From sequence record SRR31156797_4757: 33,167 nucleotides of DNA, one strand, 5' to 3'. The number at the start of each line of letters is the position of its first letter. Position 1 is the first letter of the stretch. The notes under the pieces were generated by a model, which made no database searches, was not told the DNA's origin, and saw only the letters and a list, made by a program, of their open reading frames with translations. A program made the position numbers and the translations under genes. This document shows positions 2,230 to 21,047 of this stretch, one piece after another.

Positions 2230-2850
2230 ATGACCCAAAGCTCTCTGAAATCCTTTCGCGACTCCATCGAGGCCATTGTCGTCGCCCTGCTGCTCGCCTT
2301 TGTTATCCGCGCCTTTATTGTTCAAGCTTTTAAAATCCCGTCCGGCTCCATGCTGGAAACCTTGCAGATAGGCGACCACTTGCTGGTCACCAAGTTCGCG
2401 TATGACGTGCGCCTGCCGTCCAATATCTGGCTCGACACCACAGATGGTAAAGTCCTTGCCAAGACCGGCGACCCTGAACGCGGCGATATCATTGTGTTCA
2501 AGTTCCCGGAAGATGAGTCCAAGGATTTCATCAAGCGCGTTATCGGTCTGCCCGGTGAGACCATCGAGATTCGTAATAAAGTAGTCTACATCGACGGCCA
2601 GCCTATCGATGAGCCGTACACCCAGCATACCAAATTCACCCGCAATCCCATTCGTGACGACTTCGGGCCGTTCACCGTGCCGCAGGACGAGTTCTTTGTC
2701 ATGGGCGATAACCGTGAAGGCTCCTACGATTCCCGCTGGTGGGGACCGGTCAAGCGTCAGAAGATCGTGGGTAAAGCCCTCGTCATCTACTGGTCCTGGG
2801 GCTCCCTGACAGATATCAGATTCAATCGCATCGGAACCATGTTCAATTAG
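2230..2850 (+). CDS. lepB: Signal peptidase I
   Basis: N-terminal TM helix, IPSGSM (catalytic Ser), FIKRVIGLPG (Lys), MGDNR..S.DSR. Directly follows lepA. Confidence 0.97.
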   Translation: MTQSSLKSFRDSIEAIVVALLLAFVIRAFIVQAFKIPSGSMLETLQIGDHLLVTKFAYDVRLPSNIWLDTTDGKVLAKTGDPERGDIIVFKFPEDESKDFIKRVIGLPGETIEIRNKVVYIDGQPIDEPYTQHTKFTRNPIRDDFGPFTVPQDEFFVMGDNREGSYDSRWWGPVKRQKIVGKALVIYWSWGSLTDIRFNRIGTMFN

Positions 2851-2868: not shown

Positions 2869-2937
2869 TGTGAATTCCATCGCTAAACGCGACTGAACAT
2901 CGATAAGGGCTACTGATACAACGATAAAGAGAACTGA
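2869..2937 (+). repeat. Transposon end with three closely packed TnsB-binding-like repeats
   Basis: CATCGCTAAACGCGACTGA (2878-2896), CATCGATAAGGGCTACTGA (2898-2916), CAACGATAAAGAGAACTGA (2919-2937). Confidence 0.85.
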
Positions 2938-3018
2938 GGTGAGTAGTGGAGATGACGAACAATATTTCCACACACATTATAAGCAGTACATTTTTTCTCG
3001 TGTTAGAAGAGCTTTACG

Positions 3019-3051
3019 GCGGCCATTGCTATTTCAGCAGTGGTCGCTTTT
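3019..3051 (+). terminator. Putative intrinsic terminator inside the transposon end
   Basis: GCGGCCATTGCT-atttc-AGCAGTGGTCGC forms a 12-bp stem with 2 G-U pairs, followed by TTTT. Confidence 0.55.
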
Positions 3052-3085
3052 ACTGTTGAAGATTCTCTTATGGTGGTGAGTGATT

Positions 3086-4801
3086 ATGACAACTAGCACT
3101 ATGATCCCTGGCATAAAAACATTTCCCAAAGACGGTCGAGTATGGCGGATTGATTGGCTTGGTGCAATCAATTCAAATACTCAACGCTCTGTTGAGCCAA
3201 CTATTGATGTGATAATCAGTCCCCTAGAATCAAAACAAGTACAGGCATTAACTTCAGACAATTCTAGAAGGGGTGTAATCGTTGGTGTGGGGCTACTGCC
3301 GTTCCTTAGAATTGGATCTTTATGGCTTGATGGTTTGCCATATCCGGACTTTTTAGGCTCTAATGAAGAATTACTTCATATCGAGATTGCAGAAGATACT
3401 ATAACAAATATCCATGCAAATGATCTTGATTCTACACAAGATGAAATACGCGCCATTATTCCATGGTGGGAGTATGATGTTGGTGATGCTGGCCGTGAAT
3501 CTCAATGTATAGCTATCCAGTATGAAAAAGATCCTTTTGGAATAATACTACCAAGTATTGAGGCTATTCGTTTTTACTATGCAGGGTCTACCAATTTGAC
3601 AAGTATGACTTTGTTTGGAGCGTATGAGAATTATTTAAATGATATCATTAATGTAGAGAAGTCAGGTTTCTTGGAAGAGCATGCCCGATGTATATTGCAG
3701 TTGAGGCGTTGGATAACTGATGACGATGGGTGGACAATTGGAAGAGTTTTACATGATAAATTTGCGAGAGCTGGCGTTAGACAAGTTTACGACTCAATAC
3801 TTCCGTATTCAATGAAAGGCGAGCCTGTTTACCCCAAATGTGGTTTGCCTTTTGAGGGGGAAGTCAATTGGGTTGCTCGCGGGAAGTGGATAAAGAGTGG
3901 GCTTGAGCCTGGACGCCGTTTCATTGTGTTTGAGTTAATTCGATGTTCTTCACCTTTTCCATTTGATGAGCTTCATGTAATCCGAGATAATGATGGCAGA
4001 CAGGCTGCTGAGGATACAGATATCCCAGAAGTAGAAAAGATGCCGGCTTGGGGTGTCCCCAGAGTAGCAAGGCTTCCTGGAGAGAAAGAAGCTTTGCTTC
4101 AGAGCGAAGAGGATCCACAAAAAGGTATAGCTCCAATGTATGTACCGTTAATTGGGGATCGGTTTGATGCATTGGATGGCAAAGAGATAATAAAAACCGA
4201 AAAAGAAGAAGCACCATATAAAGGGGTGAGGTTGTCTAGCCTTTTGACTGTGTCACCCGAGTCCTATAGCACCGGGGAAGAGGTTAGCGGAGAACATCCC
4301 GTAGGGGCAGTCAAAATACAAGAGGCGAGAAGGCGTAAAGGGATAGCCCCCTCATTTGATATTCTTATAAAGGCTGCCGAATTAATCAATTCGCAAGATG
4401 GATTTAGAGCTTCAATGCGATCGACCCGCTACGATCAGTTTTTAACTCCTCCTTTAAGCTCTAAAGCAAGAAAGCCATGGCCATACCTTGATTACAAAGC
4501 AGACAGGTTGCGGTGTGTTTGGGCCATTGATGTTGAATATCGCGGGGGGCATTATTGCTTTATTGATTTTGAATTGCGGAAGAAAAATGAGCATACTGCA
4601 GCTCTTGTCAGACATTTGGCAGGGAATAGACTTTCTAAGTCTGATTTTTCTATAATTTTACATCTGATTTCCGCCACGAAAGGACGATGGGATAGGTCGC
4701 GTTTTGCTCGCCATGGTATGCTTGTGACCAAAAGGAAGCATACGTGGTCAGATGCAATGGGATGTGCAAAGGCCGTAGTCGATATGATCACTAGAGGCTA
4801 G
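3086..4801 (+). CDS. Divergent TnsE-like target-selector protein
   Basis: About 570 aa, inside the Tn ends. Collinear motifs IILPSIEAIRFYY, ARGKW...FIVFEL, YSTGE...G, FDIL and RCVWAIDVEYRGGHYCFIDFE resemble my recollection of Tn7 TnsE. Start uncertain (3080/3086/3101). Confidence 0.6.
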   Translation: MTTSTMIPGIKTFPKDGRVWRIDWLGAINSNTQRSVEPTIDVIISPLESKQVQALTSDNSRRGVIVGVGLLPFLRIGSLWLDGLPYPDFLGSNEELLHIEIAEDTITNIHANDLDSTQDEIRAIIPWWEYDVGDAGRESQCIAIQYEKDPFGIILPSIEAIRFYYAGSTNLTSMTLFGAYENYLNDIINVEKSGFLEEHARCILQLRRWITDDDGWTIGRVLHDKFARAGVRQVYDSILPYSMKGEPVYPKCGLPFEGEVNWVARGKWIKSGLEPGRRFIVFELIRCSSPFPFDELHVIRDNDGRQAAEDTDIPEVEKMPAWGVPRVARLPGEKEALLQSEEDPQKGIAPMYVPLIGDRFDALDGKEIIKTEKEEAPYKGVRLSSLLTVSPESYSTGEEVSGEHPVGAVKIQEARRRKGIAPSFDILIKAAELINSQDGFRASMRSTRYDQFLTPPLSSKARKPWPYLDYKADRLRCVWAIDVEYRGGHYCFIDFELRKKNEHTAALVRHLAGNRLSKSDFSIILHLISATKGRWDRSRFARHGMLVTKRKHTWSDAMGCAKAVVDMITRG

Positions 4802-4858
4802 TAGTTACTATGGCAGCCTCATATAGCCTTGTTGTGACGGTAATTCCTCCTCCATTTT

Positions 4859-5587
4859 TTACATCGGGTTAATACTCACTTTTTGGCCTCCCCCGCTTAA
4901 TTGAGCCCGGTAGCATGAGAGTGGTGTGTTTCGTTTTTCATTCATCTCAGTGACTTTATTAATGAGCCCTTCGCTTGCGTTAGCTCCAAATATCAAGCCA
5001 ATTAGCTGGTCTGGGTTGAACTTGTGATAACCAGGCCCTTTTTCCTCCCAAACTTTCCATTCTTCTTCATTTTTCCATTTTTTTGTCTTTGTCACGAGTG
5101 ACTCTAATAGTTGCCCCTCTCGATCAGGCCTGAAGGGATTGTAGAGGGGAAGCTCATCCTCATAAAAGATTTTGTATACGGGAAAGAGAGGAGGAGAGTC
5201 ATGCTCCATTGAAAAAATCAGACATACACCGGTATGTCCAGCAGCATATGATTGCCACATGTGCATATTGTTGTTTCTCTCAGTTAGGCAGAGAATTCCA
5301 ACTGTGTCTGACACTCTTGATGAATCAATGCCCTCTTCAGCCTTGTGCTCGAAATCAAGTAGTAGTCTCAGTATCTCATTTTGTATTTGATGTGGTCTCC
5401 ATAGAGGTTTCCTGAGGCGGACAAGCTTTCGGATAGTAAGCATTTTTATTATGCGCGGGGCGTTAGGTTCTATTGTGATCTTACAATCGCATGGATCATC
5501 GAAAGTGCTAGGTGCTGAAAAATGGAGCGTGTCTTCAAGGAAAATCTGCTGAAGCCATTCCTTTTTCGGTTTATGGTATCGATACAA
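4859..5587 (-). CDS. DUF2971-like protein (candidate defence gene)
   Basis: YRY, FSAPSTFDDPCD, ILCLTE....HMWQSYA..HTGVCL, TK...W..EEEW and LIFGA form the typical DUF2971 pattern. Start codon uncertain. Confidence 0.78.
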   Translation of the reverse strand: MYRYHKPKKEWLQQIFLEDTLHFSAPSTFDDPCDCKITIEPNAPRIIKMLTIRKLVRLRKPLWRPHQIQNEILRLLLDFEHKAEEGIDSSRVSDTVGILCLTERNNNMHMWQSYAAGHTGVCLIFSMEHDSPPLFPVYKIFYEDELPLYNPFRPDREGQLLESLVTKTKKWKNEEEWKVWEEKGPGYHKFNPDQLIGLIFGANASEGLINKVTEMNEKRNTPLSCYRAQLSGGGQKVSINPM

Positions 5588-5673
5588 TTCATCGGGCCAC
5601 CTAGATAGAGAGTATGCACATATCTCTCCAAAGTTTTCATGCGGGCATCCTTCTACTGCTCTGGTTCAAGCTT

Positions 5674-6909
5674 CTAACCTCGGCAAAAATTAGACAGCTG
5701 AGTTTCAAGGTCTTCCTTCAGGCAACGCATTTTATAACTTGAGATTAGCTGGGGAGGGTCTTGTTTTGCTCGATCACCTACCGCTATTCGATTTTGCTTT
5801 TTAATCTTCAAAGTAGCTTTTTCGCCGATTACATCCTGAATACTATGTAAGTTGTAATTAAAAACAGGCTGATCAGGTTTGTCTGTAGGCTCATGGCAAA
5901 ATTTTGCATCGATCAAAACATGCTTTCCGAACTCTGTTAGTTTATTCTCAGATGTTGCGACATACCCTAGCGAGATTTCGGGGAGGCTTCTTGTTGAAAG
6001 CACATCCATTGGCAAACGAAGTAAAAAAAGATCCCAAGCGGTTGCTCGTAATGATGTTATCGCATCACTCTTATTCATGTTTTGCTGAATGTTAACCAGC
6101 TTGCCTGCAAGATTAGAAAAGTAAAATAGAGCAAGATGTTGCTCATGTGCTAAGATTAAGCCGATGTCGTTTCTCATGAACTTATCGAATTCATCAAGTT
6201 TTTTATAAGGCCCCTTTTTATCTTTGTGTTTGATGAGGACCATCTTTAACAGGCATAAATATGTAACATCTAGACTGCTTTGTGATTGGGGATGTTCGCT
6301 AATTTTCAAAATGAGCTTCTGACTACATTCATTAAAAGAATCTGCATTATATTTGTCGAAAAGTTCCTGTGTAAGCTTTTCGTCGAGCCTTATGGATGAA
6401 TCTTTGAGGAAAGTATTTGTGTCAATTGATTGTAATTTCAAAATGGATTCAACGACTGGCGGTGTGTTGACCCAAAAGTCCCAGAGCGAATTTTTATGAT
6501 ATGATTCAATGACGTAAAAAATGGGGTTAAAGTCGAATCCTGTTTTAGTAAGATGTACTAGAAAATCATGAGTGCATTTCATAATGTCATTAGGGACATT
6601 AGTATTTTGCTTGTAATAACGATCTAGGTGAGAGGCAATATGACTATCCATAATTACCGAAGGGTAAAAATGGAAATGAAACTCTCCGGGGAAGCAAGTC
6701 TGATTATTTAAGTAATATGGGCGCTTTCCGTTGAATTGATCAAGGATACATATCCGATGTTTCCCGTGTTTAAATTCCACGCTTCCATTGTATGGAGCAT
6801 CATGATTTGGTGAGTCCTTGACTAAAAATACGCTAATCCTATCGTCACCAGTCTTTTGAAAGTAGGAAAACAGGTCCCCTATCATTTTACCCCCATATAT
6901 TTGCTTCAT
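5674..6909 (-). CDS. Hypothetical protein, possible PIN-like nuclease fold
   Basis: 411-aa AT-rich ORF. Acidic motif spacing VIMDSH...YVIE...AWDL...VATSE resembles a PIN domain. Confidence 0.6.
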   Translation of the reverse strand: MKQIYGGKMIGDLFSYFQKTGDDRISVFLVKDSPNHDAPYNGSVEFKHGKHRICILDQFNGKRPYYLNNQTCFPGEFHFHFYPSVIMDSHIASHLDRYYKQNTNVPNDIMKCTHDFLVHLTKTGFDFNPIFYVIESYHKNSLWDFWVNTPPVVESILKLQSIDTNTFLKDSSIRLDEKLTQELFDKYNADSFNECSQKLILKISEHPQSQSSLDVTYLCLLKMVLIKHKDKKGPYKKLDEFDKFMRNDIGLILAHEQHLALFYFSNLAGKLVNIQQNMNKSDAITSLRATAWDLFLLRLPMDVLSTRSLPEISLGYVATSENKLTEFGKHVLIDAKFCHEPTDKPDQPVFNYNLHSIQDVIGEKATLKIKKQNRIAVGDRAKQDPPQLISSYKMRCLKEDLETQLSNFCRG

Positions 6910-7021
6910 TGTATCCGGCTCACAGCCTTAAAACATGATACTCAGTGGCAACAGAGCGAGCCTACTTCTTCTCTATTAGTTATGCCTTCAGAGATGCGAG
7001 GAAGGCAAAGTTAGGCGGGTG

Positions 7022-7282
7022 TTATTCTTCAATATCCATATTTGCAGGGAAGCGGATTTTTTGCATCGTGAGCATCTGGTTTGCGTTCAAGCGTGCCATT
7101 TCGTCAACACTTAGAAAGTCGATGCGACCATTTGGAAGCTTCCTGACCTTCATTATGCTATCTACAACCGTCAGTCCCTTTGCGAAGTGCATTTTACCAT
7201 TGCGCATTGAGTTTTCCAAAAGATGAAATCTGTGTTCGAACTCAGCTCTTGTCTTTGGGGTTTCCATTGGCTCAATATTCAT
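7022..7282 (-). CDS. avs1c: AVAST type 1 small protein Avs1c
   Basis: 86 aa, TPKTRAEFEHRFHLL...GKMHF...KVRKLPNGRIDFLSVDEMARLNAN. Directly after the protease-STAND gene, with a GGAG RBS. Confidence 0.85.
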   Translation of the reverse strand: MNIEPMETPKTRAEFEHRFHLLENSMRNGKMHFAKGLTVVDSIMKVRKLPNGRIDFLSVDEMARLNANQMLTMQKIRFPANMDIEE

Positions 7283-7298
7283 GTCTGCTCCATGTTTT

Positions 7299-10200
7299 TT
7301 AGTTGGTAGTTATCATGCTGACAGGCTGACCATCGATCTCATAAACCCAAGCCAATGAAAAACCAAACGGTAGCTTTAGTGCATCTTCTTTGATGGCCAA
7401 AGAGCAACCTTCATGTTCTGGACCTCCTCCCAAACTTTCTGAGAATCTACCCGACTTCCAATGCGAACGAGTAAAATCAGCTCCAGAAGCACCTGTATAT
7501 TTAATTAAATCTGAAGTTGGAATAGCAGGCGTAAAGCCGCCAAAGTAAGCCGGTAAGCCAATAACGTTACTACAAGTATCCCACTGAGTGTTCTTTGCTG
7601 TCGTTGGCTCATCTGTTGAAAAGAATCGTCCCGAAGGGAGTGGAAGATCTTTTTCTTTATCGTAGAAATAGGCAGTTAGCCTTACGCTAACCATTTTTTC
7701 TCCCTGCCAAATTCTTTCATAATAATCGAGATAAATATCTTCCCCACTGATAGGTTTGATTGATTCCATTTGCTCAAGCCAGTTTAAAGCCGGCGAAGAG
7801 AAGCCAACAACCCGCATCCCCTCTATACGTGTTGGGTTATATGGGCGAAAGATGTCCTCGATTTGGGGAAGTTGGTGCAAGGTCGACACAGGGAGAAGTG
7901 CAACCTGGAATGCAAAGCGGACTTTTGCTTCCCATCTTCCTGGGCGACGAGGGTTCCCTCTGGCCCCTTCTGCAAGTAGTTGTTCAAGCTCTAAGTTTGT
8001 TTCCCACGGCAGCGGCAGGCACTCCTTCTTAAGTATTTCCGATGCTCGTTTAATTAAATCATCACATGCAAGACCTAGCTCTGTAAGCCTAGACCACTGA
8101 TACATGATACTCTCAGCCCATTGTGGGCAATTGAGCTTAGATGAGGAGTTAGATTTGAAAGCCGAAGTTGGAAAATCTTTCTCCAATAGAGTCAGAGCTT
8201 TCGCGGCGGGATTCGAACCATTTTTTGCAGCTCGATTCACAATGTGTATCAGAACGGAAAGTCTGCCAGCATGCATACAGTCTTTTTTGATACTCACAAT
8301 ATCTAAGGCAGGAGCTAGTTGATCCCAAAGCTGTATTGAATCTATGTTGGAGAGTTGGTCTAGAACTCCACAGAGGACGTCTGGGTGGTTGTTGCTGTTC
8401 ATTGAGAAGGCTTGAGGGCCAAATTCAAGAATATACTCAGAATCCATTCTGAGTAGCCAAAGCAGCATCTCCGCAGCTTTCTCACTTCGTAGCCAGGTGG
8501 GATGGTCAACAGCATGAAGGATAAGCTGCATGAAGCAAGAAGAAATTTCTTCTCCGTTGGTTTTTTCCAAAAAATCATAGCTTTGAATCTGATGATCAGC
8601 AAAATCTATCATAATTGAGATGTGCTCTAACGCCACCTTTACCAAGGCCGCTTGTTCCTCCTGAGTGCACCTTTCTCCCAGCCATTCAATTAGCTGGTTA
8701 GCTATGAGCCATCTGTCGTCGTGGCGTTCATTCAGTATAAGTGCTGAGTATGATTTGATTACTTCTGATGTCGAATCAGTCGTCTGAAGCAGCATTTTTT
8801 TAGCCTTAGAGGCCTCACTCATCAGATTGCTCCAGATAGACCACTCCCCTTTTTGAATTGCCTCTAGTCCAGTGATCACCTCTTTTTGCGCTTCGGATTT
8901 ATTGCGGCGTTTTAAATACCGTTCAGCCCTTGAAAAAGCTTCTTTTGCCTCTGCGATTGAGGCTTTTGTCCCAAACACCCCTGGGAAAAACAATTCATCG
9001 CGAGACTCTTGTTGCTGGGGCTGGCTTTCGCTTTCCTGGGCCGAAGTTGGATTCGAATCAGTTGCTGGGTCATTGAGGGGAGAGTATACTCCGAACAGTG
9101 CCTCATATTTCTCAACAAGCTCAGAGGGCAACTCTTTGCTGACTGAAGATAAAAAATCAGAACACTGCTCCTTCTCAACTTCCGATTCGCATATAAGCTT
9201 TAGCCGCTTCATCATTGCGGCAACAGCCTCTCCATCTCCTTGGTTCAAATTTACTAGCTGAGCATACGCTTTCCCATAATTGGTAAGATGCCGCGAATCT
9301 CCAAACTGAAATATCTCCAGAAGAGACCAGCACAATTTCCAGTCAATGACCGGAATTGCTGACCTGACAATACGCAGTATCGCATCTTGCTCATCTAGGG
9401 CTCCACCAGGGAAACGTGTCCCCCTTAATGGGGAGACTCTGTCGATCTCTCCTTCTTTAGCTTCTTGCAGCAACTGCTCGGGAGAGCCATAGGTTTGACG
9501 CATGAAGTAACTCGACACTTTACCGTAATCACCTCGAGCACATAAAGCAGCGATAAAGTCACTCTTGGCATATCGAACAAATCGCTGAAACGTCATCTCG
9601 CCAGCAGCAGCATCTAAAAAGCCTGCAATTTGAGACAATGTACCCGTTTCTAGTGCTGTGTCATCGCCAACAGAACTCATGGCTGAGGTCATCAAACCAA
9701 ACTGATCTTCTTTGTACCAATTGGGGCCCATTGAAAATGCTAGGACAGATTGGTATGACCGCTGAGCCTCTTCTGTTGCGCCTAGTCGAACAAACAAAGG
9801 TATAATAGCTAAGAGTTCAGGGACAAGTTCATGGCGATTCTTCAGATTTTTTTGTACAAACTCTCGCCAACGCTCAGTCAGTGAAAATGCCTGATCTTCA
9901 ACATCATCTTCTAAATGGATCCGGGTGACTTTTTCTAAAACTCTGGCCAGCACGTCTCTAAATCCCTCTGAATAGAGGCCATATTGAGAAGAAAAGCGAT
10001 CTTCAATAAATGCTAGCAAGTCACTGATGTGGCCAGGGAAAATGTCAATAACTAATGACGCTAGCTGCTGGTATATTCGAGGGAATACAGCTTCGGGAAG
10101 CGCATAACTGGTTTCCCATTTAGCCCGTTGTGCCAGAGTAAATTTAAGCTGACTAAGAACCTTTTCTTGTAAAACAGCCCAAACTGCCTCTAGCTGTTTA

Positions 10201-13061
10201 GTATCATTCGATTCTTTTGCACGCCTTGCTCTACCATCGCACCATGCTAAAATCTTACAAATCGAATCGACCCCGTCCTTCCAATTGAAAGGAGAGAATA
10301 GGACCAATGAGGGGCACGCTAGGTCCGCATTGGTCAGAGACTCAAATCTCCATTCAGCCATTCCTTCTTGAAATGCTGCTTCGTCCATGGAGACATTATT
10401 GTCAGCAATAAACTGTATTGTGGGGGGCATTATATTGGGTTTGCCACTAATCATTTCGATTGTATTGCTTGGCATACCAAGAGCTATCATGGCATCGATA
10501 ATGTTGATGTGTACTTCTTCCGTTTCACTCTGCGTTTCCTCAACTATAGTCTGTAGATCATCAAAGACCGCATCCAATAGATTGTTATTTGGAGTGAGTT
10601 GATAATCATTGCAGATCAAGTGATAACCGAAAAGTCCATCTCGCAGTGGCCCTAGTAAATCGTCCACAGGGCCGGTATAGTTCTGGCGAACTTCTGCTAC
10701 TGGCTGATAACGGCCCCATAAGCACATGCAAGCTGCTTGCATGTGCAGTACCATTACACTTCTAATGGAAGAATTCGTCTCGTCATCTGGGAACATCTCC
10801 TTAATCTTATCCATCCAAAAAAAAGTGAAATTGAAAAAATCACTAGCAACCTCTGGTCCTATTGCACGTACTTTAATGGCAAGTTGTTGTACCTGTAGAT
10901 CAAAGAGTTCTAAGAAATCATGAATGCTCATCCCATTAATGTTAGAGAATAACTGTTCTTCCAGAATTCCCTCGACAATGTTCAACAACTTTAGTCCAGC
11001 CTCAAGGTCGTTCGCAGTTATCAGCTTGTGAGCAATGGTAAGAGCTTCAGAGACTGGAATCATTAAGCATCCATAACGAATAACATGTTTTAAGACTTCT
11101 TTCGTTTTGCCTAAAGCTATGAGTGCATTGGCGGTTAGCCCTGCGGATTGGGCAAATAAAATATCGTATCGGAATTGTAGCCTTTGGGACAGCAATAGAA
11201 TCCGAGCAGTTTCAACGAGATCTCCGCGACCTGTTGCCTTTGCCAATACGTCATTGATATCGCTAAGCAGGATGTCTGGTTCAACCCCTTGTGTGACGCA
11301 TTTATCAACCCAGCTTTGATTACAAAGTGAAATTACGTGATTTGTGCTATCGGTTTCAGACTTTAGACCATGATATATAAGGTTGAGTAGACCATAGCGG
11401 TCATCTTTGTGCGTCTCACAATATTCAGCGAGGCGTTTTTGAATGTCATGCTCGCGTAACTCGGTTTTTTCAATCAAGAAATCCGAAAAGGATGAGTGGT
11501 GAATAGTTGTTTCGTTTGGAACCAGAAGTAGGTGTCGAATCCGATCAAGGGTGTTGACCATGACCGCTAGTTCTGTTTGGTTTAAGACTTCTGAAAGCTG
11601 ATCGAGTGAGACTCCCCACCGCAAGCGAGCGATAATCGCTAACAAATTGACGGCTTCTGGATCCTCTTGAAGCTGGCTCCATAGCGCATCGTAATAAACC
11701 CTAATACTTCCATCGATCAATGGGAGTGAAGCTAGTTCGCTATCATCAGCTCCTGAATTGACTAAATCTATGAGATAGCGAAGATAAAGAGGGTGCCCTT
11801 GGGCCCTGCCGCAGATAATTTGAATGGTTGAATAGCTTGAGCGGTCCTCTGTCAGCGCACTATGGCAAAAGACACGTGCTACACTGTTTCCAAGCAAAGG
11901 CATTGATAGACAGCTTTCGCTATTTACCCTTGTCCCCAACCTAGCGGATAGTTGCGAGTAGCTCGGAGCAGAAAGCACAACAGATAACCCCTTGGGGGCT
12001 TCAGCTGGGAGCAATCCGATAAATTCCTCAAGCATCTTGCCGCCGAGCTTCTGTACTTCATCAATACCATCAATAAAGAGAACTCCGATTTTATCATGAG
12101 CTATATATGCCTCACCCAAATGCTTCAAAAGCGTCTCAATTTCCTTAACTATTCTAGGGTAGCTTTTTTCACCAGTACGCCCTGGCTGTTGGGTAAGAAA
12201 CATTGAGACCTGCATGCTCAACCAATCATAAAATTCCTGTGGCTGTGCTAGCAGAGCGGCATTTACTGCATCTTTTTCCGATGTGAGACTATATGTATCA
12301 AAGTGCTTTATTGCCGGATCAGTTGGAACGTATGTCTTACAAAAAGTTGATTTGCCAATCCCGTGGGTTCCCTCAATAAAGATGTAACCACCAGACTGGT
12401 CGGCAATTAATGAATCAAGCTTTTTAGCAAAATCTTCTCGTGAAGCAAGGTGTGGGTTTCTAGAATCTTGGGCTATGGCGGTTTCTGCCAAGACCTCATG
12501 TTTGCGTAAGAAATTTCCAATGGATTCCATTGATATTGCGCCGATTGTGTTGTCTACAGCAATTCGAATGATTCCTGAGCAAACGCCATCACATATCAAC
12601 GCCGCCCCGGAGAACCCTTGATAATTGGTAAGCTTAGCAGAGCTTTTTATATGAAGATCCACATTCATGCCTAATTGGGGCTGGGCGAGACATTGTGAGA
12701 TTGTTCCCTCAAGTCTATGCCCGATCACGAGTTTACTAACGGGCCAGCCATATGCGTAAAATTCCTCTCCCTCAACTGGAAGAGTTCCTTTCAGCACAAT
12801 AGGAGTGATGTCATTGGCTCTCTCTAACGAAAGTAAACAAATATCTGCGTTTTCATCATGATCTAAAATAGTTGCCTTCAATTCTTCAGAAGAATTTGAA
12901 GACCGAAAAGATAGGGTTATCTTTGTATCTGGTTCTTCAATGGCATCAATAATACAATGGCGTGCTGTTAGAACCGTATCTGGAGATACCAGTATGCCTG
13001 TGCCATAGTCTTTTCCGCACGTAACCTGGCATGTGGCGTTTTTTATTTCTGCATCCAACAT
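7299..13061 (-). CDS. avs1b: AVAST type 1 trypsin-like protease-STAND NTPase Avs1b
   Basis: Trypsin triad TARHC / DICLL / GFSGA, Walker A GTHGIGKST, Walker B VLFIDGIDE, GHPLYL, and a long helical C-terminus. 1920 aa. Confidence 0.9.
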   Translation of the reverse strand: MLDAEIKNATCQVTCGKDYGTGILVSPDTVLTARHCIIDAIEEPDTKITLSFRSSNSSEELKATILDHDENADICLLSLERANDITPIVLKGTLPVEGEEFYAYGWPVSKLVIGHRLEGTISQCLAQPQLGMNVDLHIKSSAKLTNYQGFSGAALICDGVCSGIIRIAVDNTIGAISMESIGNFLRKHEVLAETAIAQDSRNPHLASREDFAKKLDSLIADQSGGYIFIEGTHGIGKSTFCKTYVPTDPAIKHFDTYSLTSEKDAVNAALLAQPQEFYDWLSMQVSMFLTQQPGRTGEKSYPRIVKEIETLLKHLGEAYIAHDKIGVLFIDGIDEVQKLGGKMLEEFIGLLPAEAPKGLSVVLSAPSYSQLSARLGTRVNSESCLSMPLLGNSVARVFCHSALTEDRSSYSTIQIICGRAQGHPLYLRYLIDLVNSGADDSELASLPLIDGSIRVYYDALWSQLQEDPEAVNLLAIIARLRWGVSLDQLSEVLNQTELAVMVNTLDRIRHLLLVPNETTIHHSSFSDFLIEKTELREHDIQKRLAEYCETHKDDRYGLLNLIYHGLKSETDSTNHVISLCNQSWVDKCVTQGVEPDILLSDINDVLAKATGRGDLVETARILLLSQRLQFRYDILFAQSAGLTANALIALGKTKEVLKHVIRYGCLMIPVSEALTIAHKLITANDLEAGLKLLNIVEGILEEQLFSNINGMSIHDFLELFDLQVQQLAIKVRAIGPEVASDFFNFTFFWMDKIKEMFPDDETNSSIRSVMVLHMQAACMCLWGRYQPVAEVRQNYTGPVDDLLGPLRDGLFGYHLICNDYQLTPNNNLLDAVFDDLQTIVEETQSETEEVHINIIDAMIALGMPSNTIEMISGKPNIMPPTIQFIADNNVSMDEAAFQEGMAEWRFESLTNADLACPSLVLFSPFNWKDGVDSICKILAWCDGRARRAKESNDTKQLEAVWAVLQEKVLSQLKFTLAQRAKWETSYALPEAVFPRIYQQLASLVIDIFPGHISDLLAFIEDRFSSQYGLYSEGFRDVLARVLEKVTRIHLEDDVEDQAFSLTERWREFVQKNLKNRHELVPELLAIIPLFVRLGATEEAQRSYQSVLAFSMGPNWYKEDQFGLMTSAMSSVGDDTALETGTLSQIAGFLDAAAGEMTFQRFVRYAKSDFIAALCARGDYGKVSSYFMRQTYGSPEQLLQEAKEGEIDRVSPLRGTRFPGGALDEQDAILRIVRSAIPVIDWKLCWSLLEIFQFGDSRHLTNYGKAYAQLVNLNQGDGEAVAAMMKRLKLICESEVEKEQCSDFLSSVSKELPSELVEKYEALFGVYSPLNDPATDSNPTSAQESESQPQQQESRDELFFPGVFGTKASIAEAKEAFSRAERYLKRRNKSEAQKEVITGLEAIQKGEWSIWSNLMSEASKAKKMLLQTTDSTSEVIKSYSALILNERHDDRWLIANQLIEWLGERCTQEEQAALVKVALEHISIMIDFADHQIQSYDFLEKTNGEEISSCFMQLILHAVDHPTWLRSEKAAEMLLWLLRMDSEYILEFGPQAFSMNSNNHPDVLCGVLDQLSNIDSIQLWDQLAPALDIVSIKKDCMHAGRLSVLIHIVNRAAKNGSNPAAKALTLLEKDFPTSAFKSNSSSKLNCPQWAESIMYQWSRLTELGLACDDLIKRASEILKKECLPLPWETNLELEQLLAEGARGNPRRPGRWEAKVRFAFQVALLPVSTLHQLPQIEDIFRPYNPTRIEGMRVVGFSSPALNWLEQMESIKPISGEDIYLDYYERIWQGEKMVSVRLTAYFYDKEKDLPLPSGRFFSTDEPTTAKNTQWDTCSNVIGLPAYFGGFTPAIPTSDLIKYTGASGADFTRSHWKSGRFSESLGGGPEHEGCSLAIKEDALKLPFGFSLAWVYEIDGQPVSMITTN

Positions 13062-13063
13062 GA

Positions 13064-14248
13064 TTAATCATCCTTTACTAATACCCACTCCGTAGCGTTT
13101 TCTCTCGCTAAGAATGGAGCACCGTTTTTGGTTTCGCATGTCTGAATCTCACTCGAAGCAGGAGTTGGGTAGTTAAAGTACAGAGTTCGAGAAAAATTGG
13201 CAGGTCTTTCAACTATTGCGGTAAGAAGTTCAATGTCTGGATGGTTATGCTTACGGCCATTCGACGATATAAAGTACATAGGAGCATCAACTAGCTGCAA
13301 CAATTCCGGGCTGGTATTACGAAAGCTGCCGTGATGTGAAATCTTAATTGCATCGAATATCATGGAACATCCCATAGCTTGTTGCTTTCGCAAACTCTCC
13401 ACGACATCTTCAGCCCAAGCATCAGCGAGCATCAGTATGCGTGCTCCACCCAATTCAATAATGGCTGCAATAGAGCTGCTATTAGTGATTGAAGTGTCAG
13501 GCTGATAGACATCTTTTAGTTTTTTCCCACGCCTTGATGACAATTGTTTCGGCTCTTCCTCGGGATTTTCTGGTAGATGCTCAAAGCTAAATTCAAATGC
13601 ATCATCGATTATGTCACCGGCTCCCATAGGCCCCTTATATCCGTAACTATGAAGTTGCCTTTTCCATGATTTCAGTAAGCCGTCCAAACGCTTCTTCGAA
13701 GGAGTGATTACACGAATACTTTTTTTGGACAGGGAAAGAGCATTGGAGTTTTCCACCGAAATACTTGCCGTGCCATCACGTCCATTCCATAGATACCCCC
13801 CCCTGCGGATTATAGAAGCCAATGCGCTTCCTTGTTTAGCGCTAATTTCCTCCAGAGTAGAGTCTTTGTTGCTACTTTGTGGCGGATGCCCACGCAGATT
13901 GATCGCTTCTAACAACTCAAGATTTTTTGCCTGAATCTTTGAGTCGCATGGAGAAGTCAAACTTCGTAGGCTATTATGCCAAATGTTATGAACGGATATA
14001 ATTTTTGGTTGGTCTGACAAACCATTTTTGGACAGAAATCGTATTATCCCCCCAATATGGTCAGAATCGATATGGGTAGTAATAATAAGGTTTAGGACTT
14101 CGCCGTTGGCAGCCAATTTTTTGAGGTCATGCTGAATATGGTCATCGAAAGTTATTGCGTAACCACCATCAATAAGAATGTTGGCTTCATCAGCATGAAT
14201 CAGGAATGCGTCGCCGTTTTGTGCCGGGTACATTTTAACCCTCAACAT
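13064..14248 (-). CDS. avs1a: AVAST type 1 MBL-fold metallo-hydrolase Avs1a
   Basis: NGDAFL, ILIDGG, THIDSDHIGG, KISHHGS and HNHPD. Ends 2 bp before avs1b. Confidence 0.9.
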   Translation of the reverse strand: MLRVKMYPAQNGDAFLIHADEANILIDGGYAITFDDHIQHDLKKLAANGEVLNLIITTHIDSDHIGGIIRFLSKNGLSDQPKIISVHNIWHNSLRSLTSPCDSKIQAKNLELLEAINLRGHPPQSSNKDSTLEEISAKQGSALASIIRRGGYLWNGRDGTASISVENSNALSLSKKSIRVITPSKKRLDGLLKSWKRQLHSYGYKGPMGAGDIIDDAFEFSFEHLPENPEEEPKQLSSRRGKKLKDVYQPDTSITNSSSIAAIIELGGARILMLADAWAEDVVESLRKQQAMGCSMIFDAIKISHHGSFRNTSPELLQLVDAPMYFISSNGRKHNHPDIELLTAIVERPANFSRTLYFNYPTPASSEIQTCETKNGAPFLARENATEWVLVKDD

Positions 14249-14514
14249 AACTCTCTCCTTCTACAGTCATGCCGGTAGTGCAAGTGCTCTGGTAATTGTC
14301 CATGTAGTCTTTTTCATGCGTTCAGCTACTGAATGAGAGCTGTTTTCTGCCAAAATCTCACAATGCATAGCACGTGAAGACTTATCTTAAGTCGAGTTGA
14401 AAGGCGATATAAAATAGCTGGTTTATGTTCGTTCCCTTACTGCCGACATACTAAGTAGGTGAGGTTGACTAGCTTCGGGCAGTGGCTGTTGTCTTTTCTT
14501 CATTTTGCTGGGAT

Positions 14515-15549
14515 TTAAGCACTATTTTCAAAATTAATCTTTCCCATATTACGTAGTTTTGTCTTCTGTCGGTTTAAATTCTGCACCAATGATAAATACC
14601 AATTGGGCGGATTTGGGAAATCTCTTACTAGCGAAGAATACCTGACAGCCCCTTCTTTCCATGCGTCTGTAATGCGCATGGCCGGGCTTACCATTAACCA
14701 AAGTGCGAGTTGGATAATATGATGGCGTGTGGAAATGCCTCTCCAGGAAAAAGGGATTCTTTGGTGTGGAATCATAAGAGCAGGCACATCAAGATTGGAG
14801 CAGATATGCTCTCTAAGTTTGCCCTTATTTCTTTTTGACAGCAAAACCCAACATAAATGGTGAAGAACTAGGAAGAACGGCAAGTCATGGCCGCAAGCAG
14901 TGCTGGCATTAATGGAGTGTAAGAGTTCTTTGTGTTTGTTAATCAGTTCCGGACGCCCCACAAGTCTTTGTGGCTTCGCAGAGCGTAAGTCAGCCCCGCA
15001 ATTGTAGCACATAGTCATAGAGGCGGCCTGATTGACGTCCACTCCACAGTCTCTTCTGTGGAATGCGACATGAGCGTCACATGTCGGGCATGAGATGAGC
15101 ATCTTTTCCATATGAATGGGGCAAAACGTGTACAGTGCTAATCTCCACTGCCTTCGATAGTAGGGTTGTCCCCCTTCGGATAGGCATCGTGGACAGAATT
15201 GCGTGCCGCTTGTTGTTATTTTAGATATTGATGTCTTTGCAGGTAATACCCATTGCTTCCTTTTCCCTCTTTGGCTGGCGTGGAAGACGATTCCTGAATA
15301 CTCGGCAAGAGTCGTCTTATGGCCGTCATAGAGTGGAGTCCCTGTTGCGGAGCAGAGTGCTTCAAGGAACCATTCGCCTCCTTCAACATCTAGAACCCAA
15401 GACCATGGAGGTTTTTGCGCTCCAAGGCGCATGAATGCGAGCGTGTGTTGCTTGACGAGATTTGCTTCAGCTACGCGTGAAAACCATGAAGCAAGCGATT
15501 CATTCCATAGCGGCTTGGGATGTGCCGGCAGCAACTTTCCTGAGAGCAT
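14515..15549 (-). CDS. tniQ: TniQ-family target selector
   Basis: P.P...ESLASW..R.A.AN, FCPRCL...YYRRQWRL....CPIH, CPTC and CYNCG zinc-binding motifs. ATG 15549 follows GGAGG. 344 aa. Confidence 0.9.
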   Translation of the reverse strand: MLSGKLLPAHPKPLWNESLASWFSRVAEANLVKQHTLAFMRLGAQKPPWSWVLDVEGGEWFLEALCSATGTPLYDGHKTTLAEYSGIVFHASQRGKRKQWVLPAKTSISKITTSGTQFCPRCLSEGGQPYYRRQWRLALYTFCPIHMEKMLISCPTCDAHVAFHRRDCGVDVNQAASMTMCYNCGADLRSAKPQRLVGRPELINKHKELLHSINASTACGHDLPFFLVLHHLCWVLLSKRNKGKLREHICSNLDVPALMIPHQRIPFSWRGISTRHHIIQLALWLMVSPAMRITDAWKEGAVRYSSLVRDFPNPPNWYLSLVQNLNRQKTKLRNMGKINFENSA

Positions 15550-15551
15550 AC

Positions 15552-16454
15552 TTACCCTCCGTGTTCTGGCCAGTATCTCCTGTCTTGGGGGGCACACCAA
15601 TTGAGTGAGCTCAAAATGTTGGTGTCGATTTTTTCATGCCCCTGCTTCACAGCTGCCGTAGCAGCGTTTGTCAGGAGTCTGGATATTTCACCTATGTACC
15701 CATCGCTCATGCTGAGAATTTGGTTCGCGAGAGGGCCCTTGTGAAGGTCGGAGGCGTTTTTAAGCGGAAGCATGCGTTCAAATGTGATCAGTAAGCGGCG
15801 GTATGTTTCACCGTCTTTCCACCTAGGAAGTGGGGCAGGCTCAAAACGATTTGCTAACTGGTCGTCTGTCTGAATTGCACGAAACGCTTCTTTGGTGCCG
15901 ACGCCGATAATTGGAATTTGAAGCTCATTGCCAATGTATTTGATGACATTAAGAAAAGCCCTTTGCTTGTTAAGATTTCCCGCTAGAATTTGATGGATTT
16001 CATCAATGACGAGCATGCGCAAACCTACATATTTGAGCAATTTGATTGCCTGGGCACTTTTCTTTCCAACCCTGTCCGATGGCCTGAATGGCGCAAACAG
16101 TTTTTCAAGAATCGCATTGTAGAAACGCCCTTCATCCGGAACCGGTGGTGCTTGGATGTAAAGGACTGGGACAATAGCAGCCTCGCCTTCAGGATTGTCA
16201 TTGGGAGGATGTCTTTTACAAAACCTTTGGACCAACATCGTTTTTCCATTGTTGGTGTCCCCCACAATAAGCAGATTCGGCATCCTGTGAGACTTAGGGT
16301 ATGTGAGTAGGTCTTCTAGTTTCGCCAGCGTCTTTTCAGCCTGAGGATAGCCAATCCATCGGGAAGATCTGATTTTGGCAATTCGTTCGTCGTCAGAAAG
16401 AGCTAGGTGCTCAATGGCCAGTTCGTTGAGATGTGGATATTGAGGAGTCATCAT
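15552..16454 (-). CDS. tniB: TnsC/TniB AAA+ ATPase
   Basis: WIGYP, Walker A GDTNNGKT, Walker B LVIDEIH and QLANRF. ATGA overlap with the tnsB stop. Confidence 0.93.
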   Translation of the reverse strand: MMTPQYPHLNELAIEHLALSDDERIAKIRSSRWIGYPQAEKTLAKLEDLLTYPKSHRMPNLLIVGDTNNGKTMLVQRFCKRHPPNDNPEGEAAIVPVLYIQAPPVPDEGRFYNAILEKLFAPFRPSDRVGKKSAQAIKLLKYVGLRMLVIDEIHQILAGNLNKQRAFLNVIKYIGNELQIPIIGVGTKEAFRAIQTDDQLANRFEPAPLPRWKDGETYRRLLITFERMLPLKNASDLHKGPLANQILSMSDGYIGEISRLLTNAATAAVKQGHEKIDTNILSSLNWCAPQDRRYWPEHGG

Positions 16455-18313
16455 AGCTCCTCCATCACATCAAAGGGTTGCAAGTTGTCCAAGTCATCAA
16501 GTTCGGATGGAACTGGTTCAGCTTGGGGACTCAATAATTTTTTCTCAGTTGCCCCAATGCCCATTTGCCTGCGTTTATTTGCTCTTCTTGTCGCTGTGGT
16601 ATTCTTCTTTGCTGTCTCTACAACTTCTCGCATGTGCGTGTAGGCTTCAAAAATCAAATCTTCATTAATAGAAGTTTTCCCGGCTTCTAGAAGTCTACGT
16701 TTGGCTTCACGCATTTCCCATACGCTTATTGGAGGGCGAGAACTATCCCTGTAGGGAATTGGGAAGTATGTATCGAGCTCCGGGTCGAAAAACCAAATTG
16801 TACTAATGTCGCGAGGGTCACGGCGAAAAATGAATTTTCGTTTGAGTTTTGGATTTTCTGGCTCAGGCGCATCAACCCATCTTCGTAGAGCATCTGCCCA
16901 ATAATGAATCTTATCAATCAGTATGCCATAGGTTTGAACCGACCTTTCAACGAAAGGCATGAAATCAAGTCGAAGCCGCTCTTCGTCCAACGCCATAGCC
17001 GGCAGCCCTTTGCCTGGCCGAGTATCGGTTCCTAAAATGCCTTCACGGTATTTGTCGATAGGGGCCATCTCTATGGTTGAGTGAAGACGATGGTGGTATG
17101 CTTGTACAACGAGAGTAGCAAACCATTTTTCAAACTCTGAAAGTGATAGTGCTGCCTCGTTTTCAGACTTGTAGCGGCCCCGTTCCTGTACGTTTGAAAA
17201 TGTTGTGCCAGGCAGAGCTTTGATTTCATCAGCAAATGTTCCAAGTAGTCTCTCTACGTGTCCTCCAAATTCTGGGCGAGCCACCGGACGCCACTCAATG
17301 TGTATCCCATACTGGTCGCAGGCCTTTTGTAGCATGGTCCCGCGGAATTCTTTCGCATTGTCAACGTGAATGGTTGTGGGAAGCCCATAGCATGGCCATT
17401 CCCCGTCTATTTCGTGCTTGGTGAGCCAGTTGTCTTTCGGAAGTATTGCGTGAGCTAAGCACAGGCCGGTGGAAAGGGCGCTGGGAGGGTCAAAGGATAT
17501 ATGATAGCCGACCACCATCCTACTGAATACGTCAACAGCCAGCGTTATCCATGGCCTGCCGATAGGCATGCGGTAGATGTCATCAACCAGAATGATGTCC
17601 ATCGGAGTGTGGTCAATTTGAACAATCGTTAGAGGGTGATCCGCCCCTGGGAATTCTCCCTTGTTTGGCTCGTATTTGTCTTTGGCGGCTTTGTAGCCAT
17701 GCCTCTTGGCTGTTTTGAGGTAGCCGGGGATGGCTTTCAACCTGTTCCTAACTGTGTTGGGGTGAGGAGGTTTGAGATCTGCTTCACGGCACCTGCGCTC
17801 CACTTCTTGGCATACTTTAATAGGAGCTTTTTTTTGCTTGGTTAAGTATTCTGTCTCGATGACCTCTCGGATAATTTTTTCAACTTCATCGGAAAGCTTC
17901 TTGGTCCCCTTGTCGATTCTTCGTCCAGGGACAAGCGAGGTCATTAGTCTTGAATCCTCATAACGTCTCATCCATTTGTAGAGCGTGTTGACATGCACGC
18001 CTACCTCATCAGCACGGATGGCAACAAGCTTTCTGGTTCTGCCTGGGAGAAAGAGGAGTGGCTTGATGTATTCGTACCGTTCTTTGGCGATTTGCCACTT
18101 TTCCTCTGTCACTCCCTCGATGCAAGGGGAGTCTATAGGTCGACTTGGAAGAGGCTTAACCTGGGATAGTTTAAACGTATCCACTTGGCCTGTTTCGTAA
18201 TCGCTGATTGTGAATGTATCCAAGTCAAGGATTTCGATAATGGTCCCACGGCGACCATCGGCTATTACCATCTCACCCTGAGAGAATGAATATGTGGCTG
18301 GATAATTATTCAT
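16451..18313 (-). CDS. tniA: TnsB/TniA DDE transposase
   Basis: VQIDHT, GRPWIT.A.DVFSR, HVDNAKEF, GGHVER and Mu-C-terminal-like RRDPRDIS. 620 aa. Confidence 0.93.
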   Translation of the reverse strand: MNNYPATYSFSQGEMVIADGRRGTIIEILDLDTFTISDYETGQVDTFKLSQVKPLPSRPIDSPCIEGVTEEKWQIAKERYEYIKPLLFLPGRTRKLVAIRADEVGVHVNTLYKWMRRYEDSRLMTSLVPGRRIDKGTKKLSDEVEKIIREVIETEYLTKQKKAPIKVCQEVERRCREADLKPPHPNTVRNRLKAIPGYLKTAKRHGYKAAKDKYEPNKGEFPGADHPLTIVQIDHTPMDIILVDDIYRMPIGRPWITLAVDVFSRMVVGYHISFDPPSALSTGLCLAHAILPKDNWLTKHEIDGEWPCYGLPTTIHVDNAKEFRGTMLQKACDQYGIHIEWRPVARPEFGGHVERLLGTFADEIKALPGTTFSNVQERGRYKSENEAALSLSEFEKWFATLVVQAYHHRLHSTIEMAPIDKYREGILGTDTRPGKGLPAMALDEERLRLDFMPFVERSVQTYGILIDKIHYWADALRRWVDAPEPENPKLKRKFIFRRDPRDISTIWFFDPELDTYFPIPYRDSSRPPISVWEMREAKRRLLEAGKTSINEDLIFEAYTHMREVVETAKKNTTATRRANKRRQMGIGATEKKLLSPQAEPVPSELDDLDNLQPFDVMEEL

Positions 18314-18959
18314 GGTAAATACCAGATCGGAGTTTTCATGGTTATTGGTTCGGAAAAATCACAGCCGATTTGAAAAGTGCCAATCAAGTACCATAGCGTT
18401 GGTAGCAATTTTGCCTGATTCCATTCGTCTTCAAAGATGTATTTCACCAAATTGCGTGGTGTGGTTTCGCCAAGTTCGTGTAGCTTCGTGTCCAGTAACT
18501 CCATATGCGCCTCTGGGCCCGGTCCTTGGCGTGTAAACGGCAGTAGGAAACGGGCTGAATCCAAGAGGGGTGTTCTGATTTCAATTTCGGAAGCAATTTA
18601 AAACGCCATCCCTGAGTTTTGGCGAATGACAGGGCCTTTTTGAATTTGGGTTTTAGGTCGTTCCAGGCCTTTGCCATGTCGCTTCTATATTTGACCTCAA
18701 AAAGTGTTGGAATGCGTTTGGACTTTTTCGTGTAGTGAACAAGTACGTCAGGAGTGTAACGACGGTTCTTGCCTTGCGGATCAGGCCACTCGATTGTGAC
18801 CGGTTGGACCTCGAAAGACTCAACTTCGGGCGAGAATTCGATGAGCGTCAAAAAATCCCTTTCAAGGGTTGATTCAAATGCAGCAACATCTGTCGATTTT
18901 TTGTGCGCAGCAATTCCGGTCACATTGCGATAATTTTTAGGAATTCTTCTAGCTGACAT
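18310..18959 (-). pseudogene. tnsA: TnsA endonuclease, frameshifted near 18598
   Basis: N-terminal part (FESTLERDF, QP..I, YTPD.L, EVKY) and C-terminal part (LDSARFL...LW.LI) lie in different frames. One extra A at GWRFK restores a 216-aa ORF ending in an ATGA overlap with tnsB. Alternative start at 19010 with AGGAGG. Confidence 0.85.
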
Positions 18960-18965
18960 ATTAAA

Positions 18966-19090
18966 CCAGTAGCGATTAGCGTTGTGAATTTTGTTTGTAC
19001 TATACCCCATGAGACCTCCTATTAGTCAATAGTGTTGTGGGAAAAGCCGAAAATGGATGGGGCTGGTAGCGAAGAGCGATGGAATTTACA
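18966..19090 (-). repeat. Transposon end with spaced TnsB-binding-like repeats
   Basis: Minus strand: CATCGCTCTTCGCTACCAG (19063-19081), CAACACTATTGACTAATAG (19019-19037, degenerate), CAACGCTAATCGCTACTGG (18966-18984). Confidence 0.8.
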
Positions 19091-19095
19091 AAAAT
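19091..19095. repeat. Target-site duplication, right copy (AAAAT)
   Basis: Identical to 2864-2868. Confidence 0.88.
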
Positions 19096-19103
19096 AAATG
19101 AAT

Positions 19104-19130
19104 AAGCCGCCTGCAAGGGCGGCTTTTTTT
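19104..19130 (+). terminator. Intrinsic terminator, probably the displaced lepAB terminator
   Basis: AAGCCGCC-tGCAAg-GGCGGCTT followed by a T-run. In the reconstructed empty site it lies about 26 bp after the lepB stop. Confidence 0.85.
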
Positions 19131-20221: not shown

Positions 20222-20256
20222 TGAAATGGTGTGTAATATTGAGTTTGTACTCAGAA

Positions 20257-20286: not shown

Positions 20287-20310
20287 GAATAAAATCAGCA
20301 ATAAATGATC

Positions 20311-21025: not shown

Positions 21026-21047
21026 GTTCTATCTCCATTGAAAGCTG

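Follow-up and report, generated by a model that had tools for sequence, protein, structure and literature searches.

A Tn7-like transposon behind lepB that likely belongs to a family with a remote, convergent gene for a TnsE-like protein

Based on its ends, its genes and its insertion site, we conclude that positions 2869-19090 (16,222 bp, or 16.2 kb) of a 33,167-nucleotide stretch of DNA from sequence record SRR31156797_4757 (the whole stretch being called the window hereafter) constitute a Tn7-like transposon. We consider it likely that this element represents a family laid out in the order right end-tnsA-tnsB-tniB(tnsC)-tniQ-cargo-convergent tnsE-like gene-left end, and that its proteins operate along the lines of the mechanism developed below. 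An earlier note made from the letters of this stretch had claimed an intact-ended 16.2-kb Tn7-like element with a target-site duplication, and the claim is upheld by both ends, by a pair of AAAAT copies and by an empty site in a genome of the same genus.

The attachment-site gene is lepB, which codes for signal peptidase I (2230-2850, plus strand; Pfam Peptidase_S26, E 8.9e-56), and the insertion point lies 18 bp past its stop codon and ahead of its terminator. The left terminus, at 2869, starts TGTGAATTCCATCGC... and the right terminus, at 19090, finishes ...GCGATGGAATTTACA; the terminal inverted repeats are imperfect, a repeat finder returning a 26-nt pair that is 81% complementary. Copies of AAAAT stand directly outside the left end (2864-2868) and directly outside the right end (19091-19095). 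In the same-genus genome G019 (locus L052), where the end of lepB is 95% identical, the gene, one AAAAT and the terminator are contiguous, and the single copy in this uninterrupted site shows AAAAT to be a genuine target duplication of 5 bp. Independent evidence supports the right boundary, since a copy about 96% identical in metagenome contigs of the unrelated run X2 diverges precisely there, its match stopping exactly at 19090 and giving way to a different flank. Beyond the right duplication lies the native lepB terminator, a hairpin followed by a T-run (19104-19130, plus strand; -17 kcal/mol), which the insertion has parted from its gene.

The left end (2869-2934, plus strand) begins with the terminal TGTG and contains three head-to-tail repeats of about 20 bp that resemble TnsB sites (2878-2934), and the right end (18969-19090, minus strand) closes with ...TTTACA and has TnsB-site-like repeats at 19066-19081 and 18969-18984, the latter of which falls within the 5' coding region of tnsA. 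A pattern for these end repeats matches three times in the left end and twice in the right one; outside the ends the window holds a single match, 1.09 being expected by chance; it was written from those same sites, so the counts describe the sites only. The ends thus carry hallmarks of Tn7-like elements, namely a 5-bp duplication, TGT...ACA termini and arrays of transposase-site-like repeats, and 5-bp duplications are also present in three relatives (L003, L007 and L012). The GC content, 0.38-0.50 in the element and 0.50-0.56 in the flanks, is consistent with these limits.

The gene nearest the left end (3080-4801, plus strand) codes for a 573-aa protein, a putative target selector of the TnsE type, and faces inward, convergent to the transposition genes at the other end. 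The earlier note had asked that its conservation at this position be checked in relatives with different cargo, and this check, once run, came out in its favor. Homologs of TniQ-TniB-TnsB(-TnsA) lie convergent to and 2.4-9 kb downstream of the tnsE-like gene in 16 of 25 genome loci, and all five further genome loci tested have TnsB 12-14 kb off on the same contig, again convergent. In total the tnsE-like gene is convergent to a homologous core in 21 of the 25 genome loci, with variable cargo between them; as for the other four, three contigs end within 600 bp and one locus (L001) stood outside the check. Six of 13 metagenome loci likewise show the core, and one metagenome contig (L038, 1756-7902) holds a cargo-less element in which merely 134 bp separate that gene from tniQ. 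Because the distal gene has kept its place across variable cargo, and even where there is no cargo, it is a part of the transposon: it belongs to the core and not to the cargo. An exhaustive profile search, with 2085 cluster representatives at E<=0.001 of which many are full length, shows the family of the 573-aa protein to be large. We regard it as very improbable that the gene is ordinary cargo which merely chanced to adjoin the left end: its want of a sequence-family annotation would suit such an origin, but the constant end and orientation amid otherwise different cargo, its retention in L038, the large full-length family and the TnsE-like fold described below all speak against it, and the positional data effectively refute it.

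The 573-aa protein itself has no match in Pfam, NCBIfam or PADLOC, and the 44 relatives recovered by a word-indexed search, most of them about 570 aa long, are all unnamed or labeled 'hypothetical protein'. A profile of the family compared with the sequences in the PDB gives only chance-level matches (E 0.3-0.4), such that sequence alone provides no link to a solved TnsE, and a search of the ESM Atlas gave nothing useful (best score 0.76). The predicted structure is more informative. An AlphaFold (AF2) model built from 41 relatives has a mean predicted local distance difference test score (pLDDT) of 77.8, and its residues 421-573 superimpose on the TnsE C-terminal domain 5d16_A with a VIA-align Z of 11.9 (root-mean-square deviation 3.5; 141 of 161 residues), the next entry having a Z of 6.3. 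Foldseek places TnsE C-terminal domains at ranks 1-4, 6 and 9 (probability 0.98-1.00, target-normalized TM-score 0.57-0.61). The N-terminal half (residues 50-293) has only weak matches to PriB and SSB OB-folds (Z 5-6), and two disordered linkers, at 325-352 and 381-422, lie between the halves; the putative OB-folds and the linkers are compatible with the tandem PriB-like OB domains and two disordered linkers of TnsE in the literature (PMC10293859, PMC12153342). The model hence supports, on grounds of fold, the TnsE-like character that the earlier note had given to the distal gene.

The related elements point to a constrained choice of insertion site. All 24 genome loci that possess a left flank, together with eight metagenome loci, have the 3' end of lipA next to the left end (32 loci); the right flanks, where looked at, hold the rest of the lipA codons or the lipA terminator. 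The spacing could be taken by pattern in 28 of these loci, the other four being at about 25-30 bp by eye, and measured from the conserved Y-H-A-D codons it falls within 23-29 bp for 26 of the 28, the remaining two being at 34 bp and 81 bp; the median is 26 bp. The outlying value belongs to L035, which sits 81 bp past these codons and not at about 26 bp. In 20 of the 28 loci the lipA frame now stops inside the left end of the element, insertion having occurred before the native stop and replaced the last codons. The cargo-less element of L038 has a site that is neither lipA nor lepB.

Full elements at lepB number three, namely that of the window, one in the genome G001 and one on the metagenome contig L032; they start 18-23 bp past the lepB stop and, by our own count, 33, 33 and 35 bp from its conserved R-I-G codons. 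The element in G001, the nearest relative, lies at the same distance from lepB, with flanks 97.7-98.4% and core DNA 91.6% identical to those of the window. As its duplication, AGAGA, is different yet internally matching, it probably represents an insertion independent of that in the window. Its cargo also differs: besides a 706-aa protein without known function, it holds a C5 methylase and a GHKL ATPase. On L032, lepB is 83% identical, the element begins 23 bp past the stop, and its TnsB and TniQ are 74% and 54% identical to those of the window. In a TniB tree the lepB elements form one clade (100 in the SH-like approximate likelihood ratio test, SH-aLRT), and in a TnsB tree the window and G001 nest among the lipA elements (SH-aLRT 93 with L036). 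The TniQ of the window is 30-38% identical to those of the lipA group, its TniB 62-69% (bar one truncated row), and the TnsE-like proteins are 54-56% identical within the lepB group as against 30-41% to the lipA group. The simplest reading would be a TnsD-like mechanism, in which TniQ reads conserved coding DNA and directs insertion at a fixed distance, with one lineage having switched its site. The chromosomal safe site postulated in the earlier note can now be named as the 3' end of lepB, an identity which that note had missed. Neither lipA nor lepB turned up as a site of Tn7-like elements in the literature searched; the main texts of PMC10293859 and PMC8649781 name neither of them, and their supplementary tables may list such elements.

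Further observations concern the lepB site. The left end is common to the window and G001 over its initial ~58 bp, and their similarity resumes in the 3' part of tniQ to take in the rest of the core (91.6%). Between these, window positions 2927-14595 have no DNA similarity to G001, and the TnsE-like proteins are 56% identical. From this comparison of sequences, the tnsE-like gene and the cargo appear to have been swapped as one block between related elements. Two other same-genus genomes, G015 (L060) and G026 (L055), contain left-end-like sequence with TnsB-site-like repeats 15-18 bp past the lepB stop, in G026 together with a truncated start of a tnsE-like gene; a tblastn search (E<=1e-4) over 40 kb and 20 kb, respectively, detects neither a core gene nor a TnsE-like one, and these sequences are probably remnants of decayed elements. 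Past the insertion, G001 has 73 bp in place of about 965 bp of the window (20226-21190) that have no equivalent there and hold a gene of the CMD family (20311-20673) together with a regulator of the MerR family (20636-21025).

At the opposite end of the element lie the core genes, arranged on the minus strand in the order tnsA, tnsB, tniB and tniQ when read from the right end inward, with overlapping or abutting frames. The Pfam families found in them bear out a core of TniA/TniB type supplemented by TnsA, as the earlier note had held. The second gene, tnsB (16451-18313), codes for a 620-aa DDE transposase (Pfam rve and Mu-transpos_C), and tniB, or tnsC (15552-16454), for a 300-aa AAA+ adaptor (Pfam TniB PF05621, E 1.2e-79). 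The tniQ gene (14515-15600) is listed at 361 aa (Pfam TniQ PF06527, E 1.9e-23); an alignment, from which the row of L015 was left out on account of a reported stop codon, suggests Met18 as its true start and shows two conserved clusters of Cys and His. The predicted fold of TniQ (AF2 predicted template modeling score, pTM, 0.80) matches TnsD/TniQ structures, with TnsD in the TnsD-TnsC-DNA complex 8v32_J as the best Foldseek match (E 2.3e-7).

Several kinds of component are absent from the searches made. The element contains no CRISPR-like or other tandem array and matches no Rfam family; no Cas effector is matched by PADLOC or Pfam among the scanned open reading frames (ORFs), the only CAS-labeled PADLOC matches being models of TniQ from CRISPR-associated transposons (CASTs) that hit TniQ itself; no resolvase family turned up among its ORFs in the Pfam scans; and the TnsF of Tn6022 finds no match at E<=1 in the six frames of the window. 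The absence of cas genes, CRISPR array and TnsF noted earlier from reading the sequence is thereby sustained. At the junction of tniB and tniQ (15552-15600) the window has a run of six C where G001 has seven, and in G001 (L050, G001:C1:64501-79600, 9237-11180) the two genes form a single open frame of 647 aa, which could be a natural TnsC-TniQ fusion, homopolymer slippage or a sequencing error. The TnsB homolog of the Planctobacterium marinum element (the genome of L016, G104:C15:923620-925440) has one in-frame TAG and is another partly decayed copy.

The first gene of the core, tnsA (18310-19010, minus strand), is broken. Pfam Tn7_TnsA-like_N and Tn7_Tnp_TnsA_C are both present next to tnsB, the N-terminal domain in the frame 19010-18444 and the C-terminal domain in a different one, 18564-18310. 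Direct reading of the sequence places the lesion in an A-run near 18596 that is one A short, with the frame lost after about codon 138. The additional A is present in G001 and in run X2, and the complete tnsA ORFs of relatives are single frames in nine of nine cases (216-233 aa), on which grounds we conclude that the gene is broken in the window copy. Programmed -1 frameshifting was considered and rejected, since by our own reading the zero frame around the break has no heptamer of the canonical X XXY YYZ form, and we treat the break as a mutation. The tnsA-B-C-tniQ operon described in the earlier note accordingly holds in gene order and in the coupling of its frames, but the frameshift in its first gene had been overlooked. 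Given the frameshifted tnsA, excision of the window copy would probably depend on TnsA provided in trans, unless the element moves replicatively.

The lesion raises the question of whether the window copy is a dead, fixed defense island which, through the tnsA frameshift with or without other lesions, now has no role beyond that of a chromosomal Avs1 locus. At the break, the contigs of run X1 read as the window does (word depth 114), which would uphold the lesion, although X1, as the likely source run, is not independent and may be the assembly's own data; a single homopolymer base is at issue. The left-end-like sequences behind lepB in G015 and G026, with no core detected, would also fit decay at this site. 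Conversely, the window has an undamaged duplication, undamaged termini and, tnsA apart, undamaged transposition genes, TnsA could come from another element, and Tn7 lacking TnsA activity can still transpose replicatively. An inert island is accordingly a possibility that we take seriously while leaning away from it.

Taking the favored reading of a Tn7-like transposon as the basis, a mechanism can be outlined. TnsB would bind the ~20-bp repeats in both ends and carry out the 3' cuts and the joining, TnsA would make the 5' cuts and so render transposition cut-and-paste, and TniB/TnsC would couple the transposase to a target selector. One selector, TniQ, would read the conserved coding DNA at the 3' end of a housekeeping gene and place the element at a fixed distance downstream, with the left end nearest the gene: in the lepB lineage 33-35 bp past R-I-G and in most relatives, at lipA, a median of 26 bp past Y-H-A-D. 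The other, the TnsE-like protein, would open a second pathway into replicating or conjugating DNA; binding of TnsE to 3'-recessed DNA and to the beta-clamp is known for Tn7 (PMC12153342).

A number of points weigh against this scheme. All the functional roles in it are assigned by homology with Tn7 and Tn6022. For the distal protein, Pfam returns no family even at E<=10, the TnsE C-terminal model (PF18623, as cited in PMC10293859) included; BLAST detects no similarity to the TnsE of Tn6022; and a profile comparison with the latter gives a weak end-to-end match (E 0.0015, probability 16.5%, 522 columns). The frameshift in tnsA counts against a working element. Since targeting in Tn6022 needs TnsF as well as TniQ, and TnsF is missing here, DNA binding by the TniQ of the window on its own is putative. 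Between the lipA and lepB groups the divergence of TniQ goes along with that of TnsE and of TnsB, such that their covariation cannot assign the choice of site to one protein. As to plasmids, close members of the family are nearly lacking from them: eight of 72,556 PLSDB records match, all of them remote (22-26% identity) or truncated; of two contexts opened, one is a 332-aa fragment by an IS21 with no core nearby and the other an unannotated Xanthomonas plasmid with a 182-aa piece. PLSDB carriage hence offers scant direct evidence that a plasmid pathway is active, and as an indicator of TnsE activity it is uninformative.

Some of these same facts could be accommodated if the distal TnsE-like protein were not a selector of replicating DNA or plasmids at all, and instead filled the role of TnsF as the partner that enables a short TniQ to recognize lipA or lepB. 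The TniQ of Tn6022, of similar length, needs TnsF, which the window family does not have; the divergence of the TnsE-like protein tracks the attachment site; its gene sits at the end adjoining the target gene; and few members of the family are on plasmids. We nevertheless judge such a partnership unlikely, given that the fold and domain order of the 573-aa protein match TnsE, that its homolog in Tn6022 acts on a plasmid without TniQ or TnsF, that the window and G001 share a site though their TnsE-like proteins are 56% identical as opposed to 81% for TniQ, and that the structure closest to the TniQ model is the DNA-binding selector TnsD. A slightly less probable variant would have the short TniQ, as in Tn6022, incapable of reading DNA unaided and the TnsE-like protein recruited as, or doubling as, a sequence-specific reader of the lipA or lepB 3' end, with the switch from lipA to lepB mapping to it and not to TniQ; if that were true, a protein with the TnsE fold would act in chromosomal homing. 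We therefore retain TniQ as the candidate reader of the target gene and the TnsE-like protein as the candidate second selector.

We compared the element with its nearest described counterparts, using reference proteins taken from annotated plasmids. The TnsB of the window is 42% identical to that of Tn6022, 38% to the TniA of Tn402 and 24% to that of Tn7 (644 columns); its TniB is 37% identical to that of Tn6022, 46% to that of Tn402 and 22% to the TnsC of Tn7; its TnsA is 32-36% identical to that of Tn6022, and its TniQ 29% over 100 aa. The earlier note had called for TnsB and TnsC trees set against Tn7, Tn6022, Tn5053/Tn402 and CAST clades. Ours, which include one Tn6022, one Tn402 and one Tn7 but no CAST sequences, take in rows of at least 600 aa for TnsB (19) and of 270-340 aa for TniB (25), truncated rows having been left out. 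In the TnsB tree the window family, Tn6022 with an Azospirillum element, and Tn402 part at a deep node that is unresolved, with long branches leading to the references; the TniB tree puts Tn402, itself on a long branch, close to the window family or inside it. Judged by these sequences, the family appears to belong to the Tn5053/Tn402-Tn6022 group without lying inside Tn6022, and is best regarded as a separate family and not as a new architecture.

The split layout, which the earlier note had presented as new, is in fact already on record: a TnsE homolog encoded close to the left end, on the other strand and well away from the core genes, has been described for Tn6022-like transposons (PMC10293859, Faure et al. 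2023), and a 2024 study of A. baumannii reports that Tn6022 transposes into the F plasmid in dependence on TnsABC and TnsE, and that its targeting of comM requires the short TniQ together with TnsF (PMC11014353). What stands of the distinct subfamily proposed in the earlier note is the position of the core outside Tn6022 proper, going by the identities of TnsB and TniB, and the lack of TnsF; its architecture does not set it apart. Like Tn6022 (of the AbaR type, from Acinetobacter), whose arrangement we saw directly in pA85-3, the window element has tnsA-tnsB-tniB-tniQ at the right and a remote, convergent TnsE homolog of about 570-600 aa at the left, a short TnsC of the TniB type, and a chromosomal site alongside a presumed plasmid pathway. 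Unlike Tn6022, it lacks TnsF/Orf3, the inactivated tyrosine-recombinase-like protein that is there encoded in an operon with tniQ; its site is the 3' end of lepB or lipA, the gene remaining mostly intact, whereas that of Tn6022 is the interior of comM; and its distal protein is linked to the TnsE of Tn6022 by profile or fold only.

With Tn7 of E. coli it shares a heteromeric TnsA/TnsB transposase, an AAA+ adaptor, a selector with a TniQ domain directed, at a fixed distance, to a conserved gene's 3' end, a second selector of the TnsE type, a duplication of 5 bp, and termini of the TGT...ACA kind that contain several TnsB sites. In Tn7, however, tnsABCDE form one operon, whereas here the tnsE-like gene stands apart, and the cores are very distant. 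TnsD of Tn7 has 508 aa as against 361 for the TniQ of the window, and it is the right end of Tn7 that faces glmS, whereas the left end of the window element faces its target gene. The ends of the latter are named by the convention of PMC11406308. In comparison to the Tn5053/Tn402 group (tniABQR), the TniB of which is the closest among the references and the TniA/TnsB of which is similar, the window element has TnsA and TnsE-like genes, both lacking in that group, which in turn has a resolvase, tniR, and a replicative pathway; its site is the end of a chromosomal gene, whereas Tn5053/Tn402 elements target the res sites of plasmids (PMC11406308).

The cargo between the core and the distal gene consists of Avs1a, Avs1b, a PDC-S31/DUF2971 gene and a gene for a 411-aa protein. 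Avs1a (13064-14248, minus strand), an MBL-fold hydrolase and partner of Avs1b, begins after a gap of just 266 bp from tniQ and scores 515 bits against NCBIfam NF041809 (cut-off 420; PADLOC Avs1a, E 2e-175). The adjacent Avs1b (7299-13061, minus strand) is the protease-STAND protein of AVAST type 1, 1920 aa long, with 2035.8 bits against NCBIfam NF041810 (cut-off 1500) and a PADLOC score of 2540.9 bits. With both neighbors above their NCBIfam equivalog cut-offs, the pair constitutes an AVAST type 1 (Avs1) system. The gene closest to the distal one (4859-5587, minus strand) matches the candidate defense family PDC-S31 in PADLOC (E 5e-33) and DUF2971 in Pfam (E 2e-4). These matches substantiate the defense cargo recognized in the earlier note. 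The 411-aa protein (5674-6909, minus strand) has no family in Pfam, NCBIfam or PADLOC, and the ESM Atlas gives only unnamed clusters for it; its gene lies head-to-tail with the PDC-S31/DUF2971 gene, and the two may form a two-gene defense candidate. The element is a further case of anti-phage systems borne on Tn7-like transposons, a well-documented pattern (PMC8649781).

Two features remain to be placed. The window starts with lepA (253-2094), and a terminator-like hairpin (3018-3048, plus strand; 13-pair stem, -22 kcal/mol, z -3.6) stands just within the left end, upstream of the tnsE-like gene. A strong hairpin occurs between the left-end repeats and the tnsE-like start in all three lepB-site elements, those of L032 (~9927-9963) and G001 (L050, ~885-950) having z-scores of -4.7 and -9.0; the three occupy the same place and are non-homologous in sequence. 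They may block read-through from lepB, a gene that the insertion has separated from its own terminator. In lipA-site elements, where about 80 bp lie between the left end and the tnsE-like start, no such hairpin was apparent by eye, no fold having been run.

The present analysis adds a well-delimited family to the Tn7-like transposons, with the split layout of the Tn6022 type, no TnsF, and sites at lipA and lepB. As the lepB lineage is nested among the lipA elements, the two provide a natural pair for mapping the target specificity of short TniQ proteins, and permit one to ask whether TniQ alone suffices where Tn6022 needs TnsF.

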